NCBI GenBank assembly: GCA_050575255.1
Contig: JBNZDD010013726.1
Location: forward strand, 8,622,302-8,686,301
Reading direction: 5' to 3'
Source of the DNA: Harriotta raleighana
Lineage: Eukaryota
DNA: 64,000 bases
The notes below the pieces were generated by a model. That model was not told the DNA's origin. It worked only from the letters and a program-made list of their open reading frames with translations, and did no database searches. Position numbers and translations under genes: made by a program. Positions 853 to 62,027 of the stretch are shown here, piece after piece (within the stretch, counting starts at the first letter, position 1; the number at the start of each line of letters is the position of its first letter).

Positions 853-1035
853 ATAAAACAAAACCAGAAATCGCTGAGAACACTCAGCAGGTCAGGCAAC
901 GTCTATTGAGAAAGAAAAGTGAGTCAACATTGACTCATTTTCCTTTCTCCATAGATGCTGCCTGACCTGCTGAGTGTTCCCAGCGATTTCTGTTTTTGTT
1001 TCAGACTTCCGACATCTGCAGTATTTTGCATGTTG
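853..1035. mobile_element. Non-autonomous fold-back (Penelope-like) element, internally deleted copy
   Basis: Inverted arms of about 70 bp (cagaaatcgctgagaacactcagcaggtcaggca... / ...tgcctgacctgctgagtgttcccagcgatttctg) centred on gagtc-aacatt-gactc (921-936). Candidate 13-bp TSD taaatattattac (840-852) / taaacattattac (1036-1048). Same family as 17115-18203. Confidence 0.75.
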
Positions 1036-6887: not shown

Positions 6888-6929
6888 CTGATAAAACTCT
6901 CGAAGCCAGTTCTTTTGTAGGTTTTCAGG
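6888..6929 (-). CDS. INPP5A: Inositol polyphosphate 5-phosphatase A (type I IP3 5-phosphatase), coding exon 2, 42 bp, phase 0/0
   Basis: Minus strand reads ccttttgttttgcAG|CCT GAA AAC CTA CAA AAG AAC TGG CTT CGA GAG TTT TAT CAG|GTagga = PENLQKNWLREFYQ. This matches the vertebrate INPP5A segment ...GSLFDD-PENLQKNWLREFYQ-VVH... as I recall it. It has a polypyrimidine tract, a canonical AG acceptor (6931-6930) and a GT donor (6887-6886). Confidence 0.95.
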
Positions 6930-9004: not shown

Positions 9005-9357
9005 TACAGGAACATAGAGCTGGCCCATCGAGTCTGTTCCTCCATGCTACAATCATGGCTGATCTATCCCTCAACACCAATACACTCACCCTTGCCCCAA
9101 TTGCCTTGATATATCTTTACTTAATAGATGTCTGTCCATCACAGTCTTGGAAACTTGAATAGATTCAGCATCCACAGCCCTTTGAGCTTTTTGATAACTT
9201 CATGTCGTTGTTTTTAGTGATTTGTTTTAAGTGATTTGTAACACCCAAATCTCTTTGCTCCTCCATAGTTCTTAGGTTCTCACTATTTAAAAAATCTTCT
9301 GTTTTGCTAGTTTTGGATCCATAGGCTAAGACCTCACACTTACCCATATTGAATTCT
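9005..9357 (-). mobile_element. CR1-clade LINE fragments (3' end plus ORF2 piece, internally deleted)
   Basis: Minus-strand ORF ...MGKCEVLAYG...ENLRTMEEQRDLGV matches the CR1 ORF2 FN..KCEV.HFG / EQRDLGV motifs. ggcccatcgagtctgttcc...atcatggctgatc is a reverse-complement CR1 3' UTR. Confidence 0.75.
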
Positions 9358-11199
9358 AATCATTTTTATCAGGAAATATTGCATTTTTAAATGTATTCAA
9401 CTAACAATCCTTCAATCTGAAGAATAATATAAATTGAAAAAGTTATGAGTTGTGGCTTTCTCAAAAATGTAATAATCCCAGCCTTTGATAAAGCATCAGC
9501 AAAAGAATATCAAGAAAATCACAAAGAGTTTCATAAGAGTTTCTGTAAGATGTATTTGATTAAATATTTGTAAGCATCCGCAGCAGACAATTTTCACGCA
9601 GGAACATTTGACATGAATAATCATAGAATTTTAAAATGATTCAGCCCATGGTGTCTTGTGTTATTTGGAAAAGTAATCCTCCTAATTGCTCTCCTTCACT
9701 CTTTTGCTAATTATCCTGTCCCACAATCACTGACTCATTGACCACACTAAACTTTATCTGGAGGATTGTTAGCTGTATTTAAGACTTCACCAAATTTGGG
9801 AGATTTAATATGCTATATAAATATATAGAGGTGTAATTTCTCCCAATGGTATTGTAAAACATTACTTCTACAATTTAGCTGCTGTTAAAAAATTCACATT
9901 TTAGTCTTACGCTCAGAATTTTAAAAATATTCAGTCATATTTCACCCTTTCGTGTAAAGCATGAGAAGTTTCTCAAATTATGAAATAATACATAAGAATT
10001 TAATTTAATTGGGTATTTTCCTGCAAAATACAACATTCCAACCACACTTCAAAGTATAAAATGAAAGGCGTCACACCAAATTAAATTAATTAAATACAAC
10101 AATTATTTTAAGGACGTGGTAAATAAAACAGTGATTTTTATGAGTGGAAATGAGCTTTCAATAGATGTTGAAAGTTTTAACTAAATTGAATACCCGTAGA
10201 AAGTTGGCAGAAAGGATGCAACTCAAATCTTTAACCTTATCTCTAGCTTCAGATATGAATTAGCACTGCCTTGCAGTGACTCCTCCGTAGCTAATGCTAG
10301 AAGTAGCTACATTTCTGTACATTTTCTCCCCCAGCCTGCTCAATCATCTCAGCACAAAGTGAAAATTCAAATCTACTACCATCTGATCTGTATGGGACAA
10401 TCTGCCGAAATAAAAGGAGCTACACAAATGTAATTTTGTTGTTGTTGTTGTTGGTACCTGCCTGCAGTTAATTGCTAGGTTATCAAATGAGCTTGCTAGC
10501 ACTATCCGCGGTGAACGAGACAGAATAGAATCACCAGTGGCCTGAGGGCAATTCAGCGCTGGTTCTATTTGAATCAAACCTCTATGCAACAACAGAGATC
10601 CCTGTGCATTACCAGAGTAACTGATGTAGTTGTCTGAATGAGGTTGGTTAATTTTCCACTGACATGAGTGCGCATTAAATATGGTTAAGTGAGCTCAATT
10701 TTTGGGGTAACTTGGGGAGTTTTTCAAATGGAAAAATGACTATTCATTGCAATAACTAAGTTCCATTGTCATGTGCCACAAAATTGTATGTTCCTGTCAC
10801 CTGCTTACTGATCAGATAAGTTACAACTGTATATGAGCAACAGCACCACAGATAAGTGCAGTATCTCCACTGAGTTAATATAAAATATGTTTTCTTCAGA
10901 CTACACTGAATAGTAAAGTTCCCAGTCCCTACTATACAATTCTAAAGAATGCTAGCATGTTTTAAAGGTCGATAACAGAGGTATTTCTGCACTACTTCAA
11001 CCGTTTTATAAAATGTACAACTTTTATTTGCATCAGGAAGCATGGTAAAGGTTTAATCTTAAAGTCTTTTTGACATTTGTCATAACTTCACCATTAGAGA
11101 ATTATCAAGTTTATCATCTAGTAGTTTCAAATTATATTTTTTTTACACTGCATTTTGGGAGAAGCTAAGCAATCATCTTTTCTGATCTTGTACACCTCT

Positions 11200-11352
11200 C
11201 CAGTAGCTCAGCGGTTAGAGCACTCGCCTGACAAGCATGAGACCTGTGGTCGAATCCATGCAGATCAGGGCGAAACCTTGGGCAAGTTTCCTTCCGACTA
11301 ATAGTAATGCATCCAAAAAAAACACAATAAGAAAATTTGGTCATTTCAATCA
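11200..11352 (+). mobile_element. tRNA-derived SINE, 5' half
   Basis: tagctcagcggttagagcactcgcctgacaagcatgagacc..gtcgaatcc head followed by gggcgaaaccttgggcaagtttcctt. Confidence 0.85.
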
Positions 11353-12669
11353 CTGAACAGTAGGAAGGTACAGAAGATTATCATACACTGTTTGCGAATC
11401 CCAGAAAAAATGCAGTTAGAAGGATAGAACAAACTTTTCGCTGCATTGGCTAACAAAGCATGTTAGATTCAAGTGTCACTGCCAGTAATTACAATAATAT
11501 CATTCAAATTGTTTTGTCAAATTGTCTGCGTAATAACCAAATTTGTTTGGTGTTCCAGCAAGGAAATCAGCTCACTGAAACTGTGGTTCACTGTGAATAA
11601 TACAGTACGATATATGTTCCAAGTCCTTTATAAAATGCATTGGTACTTTTGGAAACTGCTGGAAACTGTTCCTTTGATGAATTTAAAAAGGAAACTGATT
11701 CCAAAGTAATTGAAGGGGCAATGAAACCCGCAATGGAAGAGAAAGCATTGGTGTTTAAAACGAGGCACAATCCCAATATTTAAAGAATTCTCCCTGTGGT
11801 CCAATGTAGATTAAAACGTTACTTCCATATACATTATGTCAATCAAACTTGCGGTTAAAGCATAAATAGAAACTCTATCTACATTCTCTATCCTCAGTCT
11901 CTATCCTCTATACTTCCTGTACTGCTGCCCAGAATATAATTTACAAATTGTAATTAAAGCAACCTTCTAATTGACAGGGTTCTATAAATACATGCTCAGT
12001 TTTTAGTTCATCCGTTTTCTCCATTATTAAAGACGGTCACTAACCACCTCAAGGTTTCCGCAGCAGCACTCACCAAACCTTTCATTTCAACCAAAGCGTT
12101 TAATTAATTTTTCATGGGGGAGACAGATTCCTATACCACTTGAAATATTCGTTTCGTTCCCTGATATTTTAATTTCTGCATTGTCTGTCATGTTATGCTG
12201 TGTGCTGAGCACAGATACAGTGAGTGTCTCCACCACACCGACACCACAAGAGAGCTCTGCAGTTTCTGCTTCAAAATTGCCTCTTAAATTGCCATTCTTG
12301 GTTTCAAATCAGCTGGGAAGAGAGTAAATTAAAGACTGCCACATGGGTTGTGCTATTTTTAATATTATCTAGTCCCCTACAGATAACTCAAACTTCCAAT
12401 TATATTTGATAGATGGCTGACCTTAGCATTCAGCCACAGAAAAATTAACAGGCACTTAAGTCCACAGATGCACTGAGATATGGTCATGATAGCTCTTCAT
12501 AAACACTTGGAAAGTTGCAGAGAACAGGACATCCATCCATCAACTTGGTGGATGACTAATTGGTAACAGAAAACCCGAAAGCTGTTCAATCACCAAACGG
12601 GGGGAGGGGGTAGGGTAATTTCAGATCTCAATTTACAAGTTTTTTTTGTTCTGATTCTGATTCTTGAGA

Positions 12670-13100: not shown

Positions 13101-14349
13101 TTTATTCTCCCTGCCGCTCAAGATACACACCAAAATTATTGTGGATTTCTAACAGTCAAGTAGCCATAGATCAACTATACATTTGAATTGAAGGATTTGT
13201 AATAGTTTGTAGTTAGCTGTTTACAACTAAACAACGTTCCCCCAGCAGCTCACATTTCAAATTGGAAGAACACCAAACATCTGATAGAAAGGCCAAGTTT
13301 GAAGACTTCAAGTAAATTTCTAATGACAGGGCTGATTTAGGTCCCTGATTGGAATAAGGAAGAACTTTTTATATTAAAACAAATCACTTTGTCTTGGAAC
13401 ATCTCAAAATGTATCAGAAGTAACCACTGTTCTGCCAATTTCAGCAATTGGTCTTGCAGATAGCCATTCGCATCATCGAGGATCCACAAATACACATGAG
13501 GTAAATGACCAATGAATATGTGGGACAAAGTAGGACAGCAGTGTCTCAATCTGCTCAATTCACTGTGAAAAATTAAACATTATTTGTGCAGTACTACTCT
13601 CTAAGTAGACAAAGAAAATAAATTTATATCCAATATCCATGTCATTTCAAATTCAATGAGAAAACAGTTGGCTCCTATGAAATAGGAGTAATGGATCTTA
13701 TGTTCTTACTTGTTAAACTTCCTCAGGATAAGTATACCCATTCACATACTTCATATACCCTGTATACATATAAGCCATTACTAACTCCATTCCCAATTCC
13801 TTTTTAAGCAGGAATCTGCTCAATCTGCAAAGAAACCCAAACCAGAGGTTAGACGACCCGCAAAGTCTACGTGGGACGGAGACCAGATATCAATTATGCT
13901 CCAGAAAAGTGATTGCATTTTGCAAGGCACAGAATGAAAGGTTTCAGAGCAGATTAGAGTGTTNTACCCATTCACATACTTCATATACCCTGCATATATA
14001 TAAGCCATTACTAACTCCATTCCCAATTCCTTTTTAAGCAGGCCATACAAGCTCAATCTGCAAAGAAACCCAAACCAGAGGTTAGACGACCCGCAAAGTC
14101 TACGTGGGACAGAGACCAGATATCAATTATGCTCCAGAAAAGTGAATGCATTTTGCAAGGCACAGAATGAAAGGTTTCAGAGCAGATTAGAGTGTTCTCC
14201 AATGTTTGTATTTATTAATTGGGACAAATAGCAACCCAGCCAATCCTATAATAAAGAATTGTATAATAAACATCCTACAATAAACATTCTATAATAAAGA
14301 ATGTTTTGTTATGAAGACCATCAATATTATTACAAGCTGCAGTACTTAT

Positions 14350-15954: not shown

Positions 15955-16360
15955 GGGCGGAACCTAATCGAGGTCTTTCAAATTCTGAAAGGTTTTTCAT
16001 AATTGACATTTGAAAGGGAAGATGTTTCCACTTGTGGGGGAGACCAAAACCAGGGGCTATAAATATAAAATAGTTCGAAATAAATCAAATAGTGAAGTCA
16101 GAAGAGACTTCCTTGCCATGAGAGGGATGGGAACGGAGAACTTGCTACCACAGAGAGTGGTTGAGGCAAACAGAATGAATGCATTTAAGGAGAAGCGAGA
16201 TAAGCACATGAGGGAGAAATGAAGAGAATATTACACTGATAGGCTGAGTTGAGGAAGGGCATCAGGAGGCTCACGTGGAGCATAAATCCTGGCGTAGACC
16301 AGTTGGGCCGAGTGGCCTGTTTCTGTGCAGTGTATTCCTGGTACAGTAATTCTATGTAAA
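15955..16360 (+). mobile_element. CR1-clade LINE 3' end
   Basis: Track ORF 16010-16222 KMFPLVGETKTRGYKYKI...RRDF..MR...NLLPQRVVEAN.MNAFKEK.DKHM is the CR1 ORF2 C-terminus. It is followed by gaccagttgggccgagtggcctgtttctgtgc...attctatgtaa. Confidence 0.88.
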
Positions 16361-16449
16361 TCGGTTCTCCGATAATGTTCTCTACCAGAAAAGAGACAGA
16401 TTGTAATAAAAAGGCCTTTTAAATGTGAATCTGACTGCAAATGTCAATT

Positions 16450-16715
16450 TGTCTCAGTTGGTGACAGGCTCGCTCTGGGTCAAAAGGCTATTGGTTCAAG
16501 CCCCACATCAGGCTCTGAACTCAGTCAAAATGACACTAGAATACAATACCATGGGAGCACTATATTATTGGAGGTACCGTCATTCACAAGTTGTAGTTTC
16601 CTGTTCAGGTGAGCAATGAAGAGAATTTATTGCTCACCTGAATGGCACTATTTGAAAAGAGAAGTAATTTTTTCCACAGTGTCCTGACCAACAATCTTCC
16701 AGATAAACTGAACAT
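16450..16715 (+). mobile_element. Deu-SINE (SacSINE1-like, old)
   Basis: ctcagttggtgac...ggttcaagcccc head; ggaggtaccgtc, tggcactatttgaaaagag and gtgtcctgaccaaca motifs shared with 37608, 39765 and 45460. Confidence 0.7.
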
Positions 16716-17180
16716 TAAGGATGATTTGCCAGGCAAAAAAAAATGTCTGTTGATTTTTGCCAACAAAATTAGTCCCTGTGTATAACCCCGGGTAATTATG
16801 TGCCATACATCAATCAAATAAGTGAAATAAGAATGCAACTTCCTCCTTTTTTCATTTATACCCAGATATAAATGAGATATGCCATGTGTGTAAACTGGAT
16901 TTTAAAACAATAAACCCGCCTTAATTTTCCAGCAAATTAAAATCTGTGTGCCCAAGCATGCTGAAGAATATAAAACTTGCAGTGCTGGTTCTAGGTAATC
17001 CACCCACATAGCGAGTTAGCAAACAATGGATGCACTTGTCAATAAAAAATAAGGAAGCACATAGCAGTGAAGATCTTTTCATTTGAATCTATAAAGTTGA
17101 ACCTAAATGCCTAAGGCAAAATGCAAAGTACTGCAAATGCTGGAAGTCTGAAACAAAAACAGAAATCGCTGGGAACACTC

Positions 17181-18027
17181 AACAACAACAACAACAACAA
17201 AATTACATTTATAGAGCGCGTTTCACGTCAGGAGGACGTCCCAAGGCNNNNNNNNNNNNNNNNNNNNNNNNNNNNNNNNNNNNNNNNNNNNNNNNNNNNN
17301 NNNNNNNNNNNNNNNNNNNNNNNNNNNNNNNNNNNNNNNNNNNNNNNNNNNNNNNNNNNNNNNNNNNNNNNNNNNNNNNNNNNNNNNNNNNNNNNNNNNN
17401 NNNNNNNNNNNNNNNNNNNNNNNNNNNNNNNNNNNNNNNNNNNNNNNNNNNNNNNNNNNNNNNNNNNNNNNNNNNNNNNNNNNNNNNNNNNNNNNNNNNN
17501 NNNNNNNNNNNNNNNNNNNNNNNNNNNNNNNNNNNNNNNNNNNNNNNNNNNNNNNNNNNNNNNNNNNNNNNNNNNNNNNNNNNNNNNNNNNNNNNNNNNN
17601 NNNNNNNNNNNNNNNNNNNNNNNNNNNNNNNNNNNNNNNNNNNNNNNNNNNNNNNNNNNNNNNNNNNNNNNNNNNNNNNNNAGTGTCGCAGTCTGGCGAT
17701 GTTCCGGAGGTGGTGGAAGGCAGTGCCAGTTGTGGCGCGGATGTGGGGGAGAAAGGACAGCTCAGGGTCAAATAGAACACCGAGGTTCCTGACTGGCTTT
17801 GCGAGGTGGAGAGTGCAGCCTTGGATGCTGATGCTGTCAGCACCCGAGTTGCGGAGGCGCTGACGCGAGCCAATCAGGAGGGCCTCGGTTTTCCGGACAT
17901 TGAGCTGAAGAAAGTTATCTCTCGTCCAGGACTCGATGTCAGACAGGCAGGCTGTCAGGACATCAGTAGTCGTGGAGTTGAGGGTAGAGGAGGAAAGGTA
18001 GAGTTGGGTGTCATCCGCATACATGTG
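17181..18027 (-). mobile_element. 5'-truncated young L2 LINE (RT C-terminal part, 3' tail with (TTG)n); spans the assembly gap
   Basis: Uninterrupted frame 18024-17682: MYADDTQLYLS...CLSDIESW..DNFLQLNVRKTEALLIG...VRNLGVLFDPELSFLPHI..TTGTAFHHLRNIARLR, containing the RT YADD motif and L2-specific downstream motifs. The 3' end reads gccttgggacgtcctcctgacgtgaaacgcgctctataaatgtaattttgttgttg. Confidence 0.93.
17248..17681. other. Assembly gap (434 N)
   Basis: Run of n inside the L2 copy. Confidence 1.
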
Positions 18028-18058
18028 GGTCAGGCAGCATCTATGGAGAAAGGAAAGT

Positions 18059-18095
18059 GAGTCAAGATTTCAGGTCCACGACCCTTCATCAGAAC
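18059..18095 (-). ncRNA. Degenerate minimal type I hammerhead ribozyme motif
   Basis: Minus strand GUU-CUGAUGA-AG GGUC GUG GACC U-GAAA-UCUU-GAC. Both core boxes and helices I and II are present, but helix III has lost the CG palindrome. Confidence 0.55.
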
Positions 18096-18100
18096 CGCAA

Positions 18101-18137
18101 AGTTTTGATGAAAGGTCATGGACACGAAACGTTGACT
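18101..18137 (+). ncRNA. Degenerate minimal type I hammerhead ribozyme motif
   Basis: AGUU-UUGAUGA-AAG GUC AUG GAC AC-GAAA-CGUU-GACU. Helix I AGUU/GACU, palindromic helix III AACGUU, GUU cleavage triplet; core C3 is mutated to U. Confidence 0.55.
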
Positions 18138-20129
18138 CACTTTCCTTTCTCCATAGATGCTGCCTGACCTGTTGAGTGTTCCCAGCGATTTGCGTTTTTG
18201 TTTCTAAATGCCTAAAATATGGTTTGATTGATGACTACTCGCTCCTCCTCCTCCTGAACCCTCTCCTCCCACCTCCATAAGTATTTACATTGTGCCCAGC
18301 GCTGTCACACAAAGCAAACTGTTTAAACACTTGAATACTCTGATACAGGTTAACACATGTTGACGTCTGTTTCTTGCTGAGGTAAGTGCCATTTTAAGCA
18401 CTGATGCATTGAACAGATGCCACGCCACCAGCTGGGCTGTTAAGTTTCACAATTAGCAGTGCGAGAGATAACACTTAGCCTGGCAAGGGGGGGATAATGA
18501 GATCCATAAGCAATAAACTGCGTAATAAATTACGAATATGCATTGAATCTTCAGTTCGCCTGCAGATCAACACAGGCTATCGGCAATGTGAGGAACGTAA
18601 ACAAGTAAACAACTGAAGAGTTGACGGGGTGTAGCCATTAACTCCAGCTATAATTTGAGTCTCACAATCTCCAAAGTTGCTTTTTGTCACACTAACACAG
18701 ATGACATGATTTGCATTTTTAATTATAGTCACATAATCACATCTTAGGGGTTAGCCTGCAGTGGCCTATTTACATGAAATTATTCACTAATGAGAAATTG
18801 AAATGAACTGTTGCCTGCTATATGTTTCAAGTGTTTAGAGATGGTCTCTCAGTGATAAGTATCTAACTGTGGTATATTGCTTACCACATTTCAGCCAAGA
18901 ATCAGAACACCTTTCAGAGTCTGGCATACAATTCTGAAATCTAGCCTATAACAAACTGGTTTGATGCCTGAAAATATCGGTTGTTTTATCCATGGCTTTG
19001 ATAAAAATCAACTAGTTAGTAAACTAACTGCCCAATTATTGCTATAATTTTACAAGTAAACACTCGATAATGGTTGGCTTCATCCCCACGCTACTAAGCC
19101 ATTGGGAAATTACACTCCAATCTTTATTTATGCAACAACAACAGCTATGTGTAAGTGATAAGTAACAATGAATGATCCTATTGATGAACTAGATTGGCTT
19201 TGCCTCTCCTTTGTCATGACATAAATGTGCTGCTACAAAAATACCAGCAACTGTCGTCACAAGTGACTTCCCTCCCTCTCTCGAAGCAGTAAACAAATGC
19301 ACACTCCATGGGCCCGAACAAAATTACGACTAGTTTTTTCCCGGCAATTTTTCATCGTTGTGATTCTCATCAACAGTGATACATCATGGTTTTGCCTCCT
19401 GATTTGCGACCTTCAAATCCATGGTGGATTTTAACTCTTGCCTTGTGAAAACTCTCACCGATGTCTGCTGTATTTAAATCTTTGAGATAGGTATAGCTGG
19501 TCTGTCAAGATGCTCTGACTTTGGATCTTGGTTTCCGTTGAAAACCCATGTGATCTGTAAAACNCCTCACCGATGTCTAGCAGCCTTTGCTGCTGTATTT
19601 AAATCTTTGAGATAGGTATAGCTGGTCTGTCAAGATGCTCTGACTTTGGATCTTGGTTTCCGTTGAAAACCCATGTGATCTGTAAAACCTTTGGACCACA
19701 GGCCAGTGACTTGTGGACTAATTCAATCCGAAGTAGACGAGGGAAAACACACAGCATGACAGATCTATGATTCGATTCCTAGCGTACATGTGGTTCATTA
19801 GATGTGTATTGCTCTAAGCAATCAAAGCTAATAGCTGGGTCTGTGTGTGGAAAGAGCATATGTTTATCCAGAGTCATTAAGCAAAAGCTATCAGGATATT
19901 TTAACATGAATAGTGGGATTTAAGTACATTGTGGGTCCCAAAAAAATAAAAATGTAAAATATTACCCAAAGCCAATAATCAACTCTGCAACAATTTTGGA
20001 TCTGGGGGGAATGGGGCAGCTTGCTAAAGATCCTTATTGTGAAGTTACATGCAGCACATCATAACAAGCACAAAATTGAAACACTTCGAGGAATATACAA
20101 AAGTGGAGTACTGTATTTGGTCGATAAAT

Positions 20130-60954: not shown

Positions 60955-62027
60955 GTGAATACTGTTTTGGGATCTTTAAGAAGCCACCTGAAAAGGCAGA
61001 TGGGCACGCAGTTGAAAGGAAGATTTGAATAAAAAGGAAGTTTTAATGTGAGGAAATGGTCTGCTAACTCAAGACTGCAAACATGATCTTCCCTCAAGTT
61101 AATAATATTGCTTTAATAACTAAAACAATCCAGCAGTCGCAGTGTCCTGATAGACAGGCGCCAGGAAGTATTTCTTTGTGCCGTGCGTAATCCACAGNTC
61201 AAGACTGCAAACATGATCTTCCCTCAAGTTAATAATATTGCTTTAATAACTAAAACAATNGTGAATACTGTTTTGGGATCTTTAAGAAGCCACCTGAAAA
61301 GGCAGATGGGCACGCAGTTGAAAGGAAGATTTGAATAAAAAGGAAGTTTTAATGTGAGGAAATGGTCTGCTAACATGATCTTCCCTCAAGTTAATAATAT
61401 TGCTTTAATAACTAAAACAATCCAGCAGTCGCAGTGTCCTGATAGACAGGCGCCAGGAAGTATTTCTTTGTGCCGTGCGTAATCCACAGCTGGAACATGT
61501 TTACAAGTGGATCCTTGAGACTGGAACATCAGATTAATTTAAAAAACAACTTGATCTTGTAATCTGATGACCATATAGTTTGTATAACAATAATCAATAA
61601 TAATCCTTCTTCGTCCAACCTGTTTTGTGATCCTACAATAAATGCTTAAATCTAAACCATATGTTGGTCCCTGTGAAAGGCTGCAAATTATTAACCACTG
61701 ACTTTTTTAAAAAAAAATCATATGAACATAGGATGATGGAATTTGGAGGATTGAAGGGAGGTGGAATCTCACAGTGAGGTCCCAGCAATTCTCCAGCTGT
61801 GTTATTCAAGAAGCAGGTGATTGGGAACATAATGGCATGTTGGAGAGTTGGGAGGATCAGGAAGAAGAAAGAATGCGAGAGATCAAAAAGGGAACAGGAA
61901 ATAAAATTGCAATCAAGTAAAAGATTATTTCATAACAATCTAAAATGCATCCTCATCATAACAGGTGATATACACAGAGACTATTTAAGTACGTAACTAA
62001 GTAAGTGTCCTTGATGTGCAAACTAAT

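Follow-up and report, generated by a model that had tools for sequence, protein, structure and literature searches.

Structure of the fold-back element

The window analysed here is a 64,000-nt stretch of DNA from Harriotta raleighana (contig JBNZDD010013726.1, positions 8,622,302 to 8,686,301), and our subject is a small fold-back element at 17115..18203, in which two inverted arms of unequal length meet head to head, each opening with a hammerhead ribozyme motif. The analysis confirmed that this element is real and that both of its hammerhead motifs are damaged.

The element is flanked by an AT-rich 12-bp direct repeat, CTAAATGCCTAA, whose left (17103..17114, plus strand) and right (18204..18215, plus strand) copies agree at 12/12 positions, a match with a rough chance of ~4e-6 at such offsets. 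We read them as a target-site duplication (TSD), the first base of the right copy being possibly shared with the arm. Between them lie, in order, a 35-nt tail (17115..17149, minus strand), the distal part of the long arm (17150..17184, minus), a nested 5'-truncated fragment of a long interspersed nuclear element (LINE; 17185..18027, minus) that severs this arm, its proximal part with the minus-strand hammerhead (18028..18095, minus), a 5-nt seam joining the arm heads (18096..18100) and the short arm (18101..18203, plus). Comparison of the inverted repeats pairs 18028-18095 with 18102-18169 (68 nt, 90% identity) and 17150-17184 with 18170-18204 (35 nt, 94%), and the arms differ at 9/103 positions. 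The long arm has 138 nt on the minus strand and the short arm 103-104 nt on the plus strand, the 35 nt of excess being 17115-17149. A remainder of 246 bp is left when the nested piece is excised; the layout given by the sequence-only reading, about 240 bp of asymmetric inverted repeat within a 12-bp direct repeat, was thus correct. The contiguous part folds into a very stable hairpin (-113.7 and -118.1 kcal/mol; z = -14.7 and -17.6), which 0/200 shuffles equalled.

An Rfam search of 16800-18500 returned 12 matches up to E 10. Hammerhead families account for 0/12, so that the covariance-model check on the ribozymes came out negative; no tRNA or 5S match was found either, nor a head of the tRNA, 5S or 7SL type for RNA polymerase III. 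The top matches were to microRNA models, driven by the hairpin and far under their gathering scores, and a microRNA precursor was rejected.

The nested piece has a microsatellite tail at 17185, a reverse transcriptase (RT) C-terminal frame that opens at the YADD motif, and 434 N in its middle; reads of the LINE exit the window at 18028. It matches RVT_1 with E 7e-5, under the curated cut-off, and a TSD of its own is absent. From its tail and protein it is a putative L2. At 17178-17190 the microsatellite tail sits on a matching word, which copy 1 (as we call the element hereafter) has as a minority variant in its other arm, and pairing between tail and target may have been involved. The 3' end of this LINE has eleven more matches in the window (4830, 10450, 23501, 28956, 30202, 38497, 43750, 52632, 54651, 60468 and 60789), likely tails of LINEs or of short interspersed nuclear elements (SINEs).

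Two opposed hammerhead motifs

Each arm opens with a minimal type I hammerhead (min-HHR), in which a 4-bp helix I, the core and one additional A lead into helix II, capped by a 3-nt loop; GAAA, two further letters and UU follow. The motif on the host-sense strand (18060..18096, minus) keeps CUGAUGA and GAAA intact, with a 4-bp helix I and a 5-bp helix II holding a G-U at 10.1-11.1; its helix III palindrome is lost and reads AUCU, not ACGU. The plus-strand motif (18101..18137, predicted cut after 18133) retains ACGU in helix III, and there C3 has become U, making the core UUGAUGA, and the two outer pairs of helix II are broken (A-C and G-A). Both motifs have the extra A after A9. The sequence-only reading had placed one motif on each strand with exactly these lesions, C3>U on the plus strand and CG>UC in helix III of the host-sense motif, and in this it holds; its helix II, GGUC-RUG-GACC, is a merged ideal that neither motif presents, two pairs being broken in one and G10.1-U11.1 standing in the other. 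A descriptor composed after the motifs had been seen matches exactly these two motifs in the 64 kb (C3 at 18105, plus, and 18092, minus), and gave three matches in 20 shuffled windows. A strict core pattern misses both and gave one chance match.

The features of the min-HHRs of metazoan Penelope-like elements (PLEs) comprise one additional nucleotide after A9, G10.1-C11.1, a short helix I and a palindromic 15.2-16.2 (PMC4209133; this paper and the others below are cited from excerpts). Each motif of copy 1 lacks at least one of them, helix I being allowed 4-5 bp, and the same excerpt, which names no cartilaginous fish, reports no cleavage for a single min-HHR. Forcing the hammerhead helices against the hairpin would cost 40.2 (plus) and 44.5 (minus) kcal/mol, and in this folding model the hairpin buries both motifs. 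Both ribozymes are predicted to be inactive in copy 1, as passengers of the parental pseudo-long terminal repeat (pLTR).

The family in reads and a second copy

We compared the element with raw DNA reads (two runs of a single sample whose species label is that of the window's source), taking in 40/125 differences, 15/290 joints and 24/3058 loose ends. Among the 23 runs listed for this region there was no RNA run, and we draw no conclusion from that. Depth rises from 0.7-1.0 over the flanks to 9340-11792 over the distal short arm. This ratio corresponds to ~1.2-1.3 x 10^4 arm equivalents, and to ~1500-1700 at the C3 position of one arm, both within a factor of two either way as the flank depth comes from few reads. 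The lesions of copy 1 are not those of the family: C3 is restored in 2393/2724 reads, and a C at 18124 in 8330/9497 reads gives a perfect 5-bp helix II. Five G-C-rich pairs and the ACGT palindrome are present in the loose-end consensus, built from 1379 and 1709 reads at an agreement of 0.70-0.71. The family state thus combines the CUGANGA/GAAA/UH core, the extra nucleotide after A9, G10.1-C11.1, the short helix I and the palindromic 15.2-16.2. The conservation of CUGANGA and GAAA in the family, a point on which the sequence-only reading had asked to be tested, is borne out by the C3 counts, and so is its assignment of the motifs to the minimal type I hammerheads of PLEs.

At 18095, the head of the arm, 988 reads exit into upstream sequence (agreement 0.5), as do 212 contigs of another species, into similar sequence (agreement 0.37); longer elements therefore exist. 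The upstream pLTR motif is not found in the 64-kb window. The 15/290 joints listed include numerous and varied jumps across the centre. In copy 1 a minority T occupies 18172 in both arms, where the family has C in 21718/24340 reads.

A second copy of the family, copy 2, lies at 853..1035 (plus strand), in opposite orientation, with a tail of ~33 nt and without a catalytic core, between TSDs of 13 bp with one mismatch (840-852 and 1036-1048). Its arms overlap in the helix III palindrome at 926-931, and three extra letters stand at the end of its short arm. Both of its arm ends lie at most ~2 nt from the two family positions at which those of copy 1 end, and its centre is different: the arms of copy 1 meet at the head of helix I, those of copy 2 in the palindrome of helix III. 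On the 5' side of the predicted cut, the arms of copy 1 still have 33-34 nt, and copy 2 has kept the palindrome there with 5/6 letters (chance 0.5%). As both copies keep sequence 5' of the predicted cut, the template appears to have been uncleaved.

Several observations concern the family at large. A second subfamily is hinted at by 1286-1594 reads that depart from the arm at 18186 and continue in a distal sequence of variant form. In another species, a contig matching 18177-18489 spans 27 short-arm letters together with the TSD and the right flank (20 other letters), suggesting an insertion common to two species; its span of the arm is under our bridging bar of 31 letters. In both copies (18157-18204 and 955-1038, plus) an ATG directly behind a stop opens a frame through arm and tail, which runs for 27 codons in copy 2 and may be where a parental open reading frame (ORF) starts, as it does in Pen2a; homology searches on it gave no match. 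A pyrimidine tract followed by CAG coincides with the tail boundary. The hammerhead pattern had 0 matches in metagenome and viral contigs, and matches to the arm pattern (one and two) were dropped as chance, the one having no further likeness and the other two lying in bacterial assemblies. A literature search on this family in cartilaginous fish returned no relevant paper; the family may already be in Repbase or Dfam.

A probable stub insertion of a Penelope-like element

We consider copy 1 to be the stub insertion of an endonuclease-bearing (EN+) PLE, a decayed head-to-head pair of hammerhead-bearing ends that was assembled on site and not copied as a unit, and we give this reading a probability of roughly 0.75. 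Membership of the PLEs is inferred from layout and motif together. In both window copies an inverted, 5'-truncated pLTR copy adjoins a direct one, the short arm of copy 1 being the inverted, tail-less piece; a tail is found at one end (35 nt in copy 1, ~33 nt in copy 2); and the TSDs, at AT-rich sites, vary in length (12 bp against 13 bp with one mismatch). Inverted truncated pLTR copies and a tail of 30-40 bp on one end have been described for PLEs (PMC8557442), as has the inverted truncated pLTR with TSDs of 8-10 bp (PMC3846280). The 35-nt asymmetry of copy 1 is the PLE tail, because a 30-40-nt tail at one end is described for these elements and recurs in copy 2; family reads also extend the short arm behind 18204 with the same sequence as the tail. 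The Anolis PLE protein cuts and extends both strands of AT-rich DNA, and two internal RT start sites bracket the tail; in vitro, ribozyme-dead RNA inserts as well as the wild type (PMC11167929).

The likeness to EN+ PLE insertions (Adineta Pen2a_Av, PMC3846280; PMC8557442; Anolis PAc, PMC11167929) covers the head-to-head pLTR pieces, the 30-40-nt tail at one end, the short AT-rich TSD and the hammerhead within the repeat. Unlike in the insertions these excerpts describe, copy 1 has no ORF or body between its arms, and both arms start at the hammerhead head. Its motifs share with metazoan PLE min-HHRs the extra nucleotide after A9, G10.1-C11.1 (in the family state), the 4-bp helix I and the palindromic 15.2-16.2, whereas helix II has 5 bp here and 7-8 there (PMC4209133). 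In Schistosoma, pairs of opposed min-HHRs on opposite strands have been ascribed to truncated PLEs (PMC4209133); they stand 100-700 bp apart, and those of copy 1 only 12 nt. Non-LTR retrozymes, found in one chondrichthyan genome, are likewise non-coding, with a type I hammerhead, and derive from PLE pLTRs (bioRxiv 10.64898/2026.07.22.740005). They are head-to-tail tandems with same-strand motifs able to dimerise, unlike the dispersed head-to-head pair with a TSD seen here; as the two motifs lie on opposite strands, one each, a retrozyme was rejected. The layout of inverted pLTR, tail and TSD, and that of opposed minimal hammerheads, is already described for PLEs in these sources, and the locus itself is of little weight, one dead stub among thousands with a known layout. 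Taken as a class, stubs like this one preserve a natural record of how PLEs insert.

Several points weigh against this reading. No partner with RT and GIY-YIG domains sharing the terminus was found in the window, where 1/123 frames matches Pfam and is the LINE piece (123 of the 128 listed frames of 72 or more residues were sent, N-containing frames being excluded and the LINE piece added). Two arm-derived peptides had 0 homology matches, as a weak query of only ~22-25 element residues each. The comparison of centres rests on two whole copies, a unit-copied subset of the family may exist, and the jumps in contigs may stem from deletions that arose later within the hairpin, not from different insertion centres. 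The differences between the arms cluster in the ribozyme part, with 7/37 against 2/66 (Fisher p = 0.0099), and under a uniform rate a change in both motifs has a chance of only 0.19-0.28. To our knowledge, twin priming in vivo has no demonstration for any PLE; a literature search on twin priming or strong-stop products in PLEs found no paper in a partial collection. Finally, self-priming has been proposed from palindromes at inverted junctions of Adineta PLEs (PMC3846280).

This last point leads to the alternative that survives best, which keeps the PLE origin and has the inverted arm arise from a single cDNA, through fold-back self-priming or a template switch, not by priming from two ends. 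We hold it to be a serious but clearly less probable account. Copy 2, joined exactly within a 6-nt palindrome, suits it well; the seam of copy 1 is 5 nt long and not palindromic. Self-priming alone also leaves unexplained why the short arm stops 33-35 nt before the end of the long arm in both copies, a fixed stop that two RT start sites (PMC11167929) do account for.

The sequence-only reading had instead proposed a SINE-like parasite, a non-autonomous master that a PLE partner would move as one unit, by transcription and retrotransposition of the entire fold-back. The very high copy number and the lack of coding content would fit such a unit, and in Adineta mobilisation in trans needs no more than the pLTR sequences (PMC3846280). 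The minority T at 18172 shared by both arms would fit a single template; it fits twin copies too, and its mirror letter lies at the LINE junction. On the other side, the centres differ in 2/2 window copies, the tail is that of a PLE, and reads pass from the arm head into longer elements. Copying from a 3' end needs one defined end, and both copies have their two ends on one shared pair of family positions. A tRNA or 5S match is absent, and the hairpin (-113 to -118 kcal/mol) would bury both ribozymes. With head-to-head arms, either transcript yields the antisense arm before the ribozyme, and together with the cost of folding this makes a SINE that depends on its ribozyme unlikely. We find the proposal improbable on these grounds. 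A miniature inverted-repeat transposable element (MITE) of a DNA transposon that held hammerhead-like words by chance would also be short, non-coding, inverted-repeat and abundant, but it is hardly credible given ends that are not mirror images (the 35-nt tail), TSDs of 12 and 13, differing centres and a family state with all min-HHR features; here the sequence-only reading, which had favoured a retro-insertion with TSD over a MITE, was right.

Proposed insertion mechanism and a possible start of the RNA

For the PLE stub, the insertion could have proceeded as follows. The GIY-YIG nuclease of the element would make a staggered cut of 12 nt in AT-rich DNA, and both 3' ends would prime reverse transcription on uncleaved element RNA, from two start sites 35 nt apart that would give rise to the tail. 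Both cDNAs would end at the hammerhead head and be joined, through a 5-nt seam (putative filler) in copy 1 and through the palindrome in copy 2, and fill-in would produce the TSD. The later insertion of the LINE fragment and point changes, many of them at CpG, would then have broken both motifs. The two fixed arm ends, 33-35 nt apart in both copies, would mark two priming sites, and the sequence kept 5' of the cut site suggests that the ribozyme had not acted.

The arm heads may in turn mark the start of the RNA. In the upstream loose-end consensus, obtained in two species and read in pLTR sense, a TATA-like box is followed ~28 nt later by an initiator-like YYAGTTC; the plus arm begins with the A of this word, the minus arm one base after it. 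A TATA box and initiator have been noted in the pLTR of Adineta Pen2a (PMC3846280). We tentatively suggest, as a possibility we would not yet rely on, that the fold-back is a double strong-stop product, its two cDNAs running off the 5' end of uncleaved RNA and being joined afterwards. RT would then start in the 5' pLTR copy, 104 and 138 nt downstream of the RNA start. The distances from stem II to the RT starts are ~92 and 127 nt here, a scale comparable to that in Anolis, where the ORF opens at stem II and RT starts 111-118 nt inside it (PMC11167929). If true, a single step would account for the thousands of tiny stubs, for the tail and for the upstream pLTR that full-length PLEs carry in inverted form, and the hammerhead would not cut the template used for insertion.

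The same letters have a real rival interpretation as a 3' splice site. The arm head carries a pyrimidine tract and CAG, and in Drosophila virilis an intron ends at helix I (PMC4209133), the intron lying 46 nt below the start (PMC2377424).

The host gene, and selection or decay of the ribozymes

A scan for splice signals found a coding exon of 42 nt with clean splice sites on the minus strand (6888..6929), putatively exon 2 of INPP5A. Copy 1 would thus be intronic, with the host transcript on the minus strand. The sequence-only reading had placed the element in an INPP5A intron; the exon and its splice sites agree with this, the name of the gene being putative. A search for short 5-phosphatase motifs found no exon, and no upstream host exon was identified in the 64-kb window. 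An exon-like stretch of 107 nt, which has favourable splice signals and is open in two frames, lies upstream of the 42-nt exon (16275-16381, minus), and one of its frames has no Pfam match.

It had also been left open whether the lesions reflect selection or decay. Under selection, an active hammerhead in host sense would cut INPP5A pre-mRNA and its loss would be favoured. The clustering of differences in the ribozyme part speaks for this as long as CpG positions are counted (p = 0.0099), and so does the depletion of tandem retrozymes from Xenopus introns (bioRxiv 10.64898/2026.07.22.740005). However, 4/7 of the ribozyme-part differences are at CpG, and without the CG columns the comparison falls to 3/31 against 1/62 (p = 0.11). 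Likewise, 4/7 belong to the plus motif, on the strand opposite the host transcript, whereas the catalytic core survives in the host-sense motif, which has lost only the dimer palindrome and one G-C pair. A lone min-HHR, moreover, shows no cleavage (PMC4209133), and the hairpin would block its folding. Selection thus seems to us quite improbable. Decay suffices, because of the hairpin, the inactivity of the monomer and the pattern of the lesions; selection is unnecessary and weakly contradicted, on the strength of one copy.

Other features of the window

A small hairpin with 17-nt arms (94% complementary) and a 5-nt loop lies at 16604-16642. Local duplications at ~13750-14100 and 60990-61400, with a spacing of ~233 and 292 nt, are visible as repeated translations.

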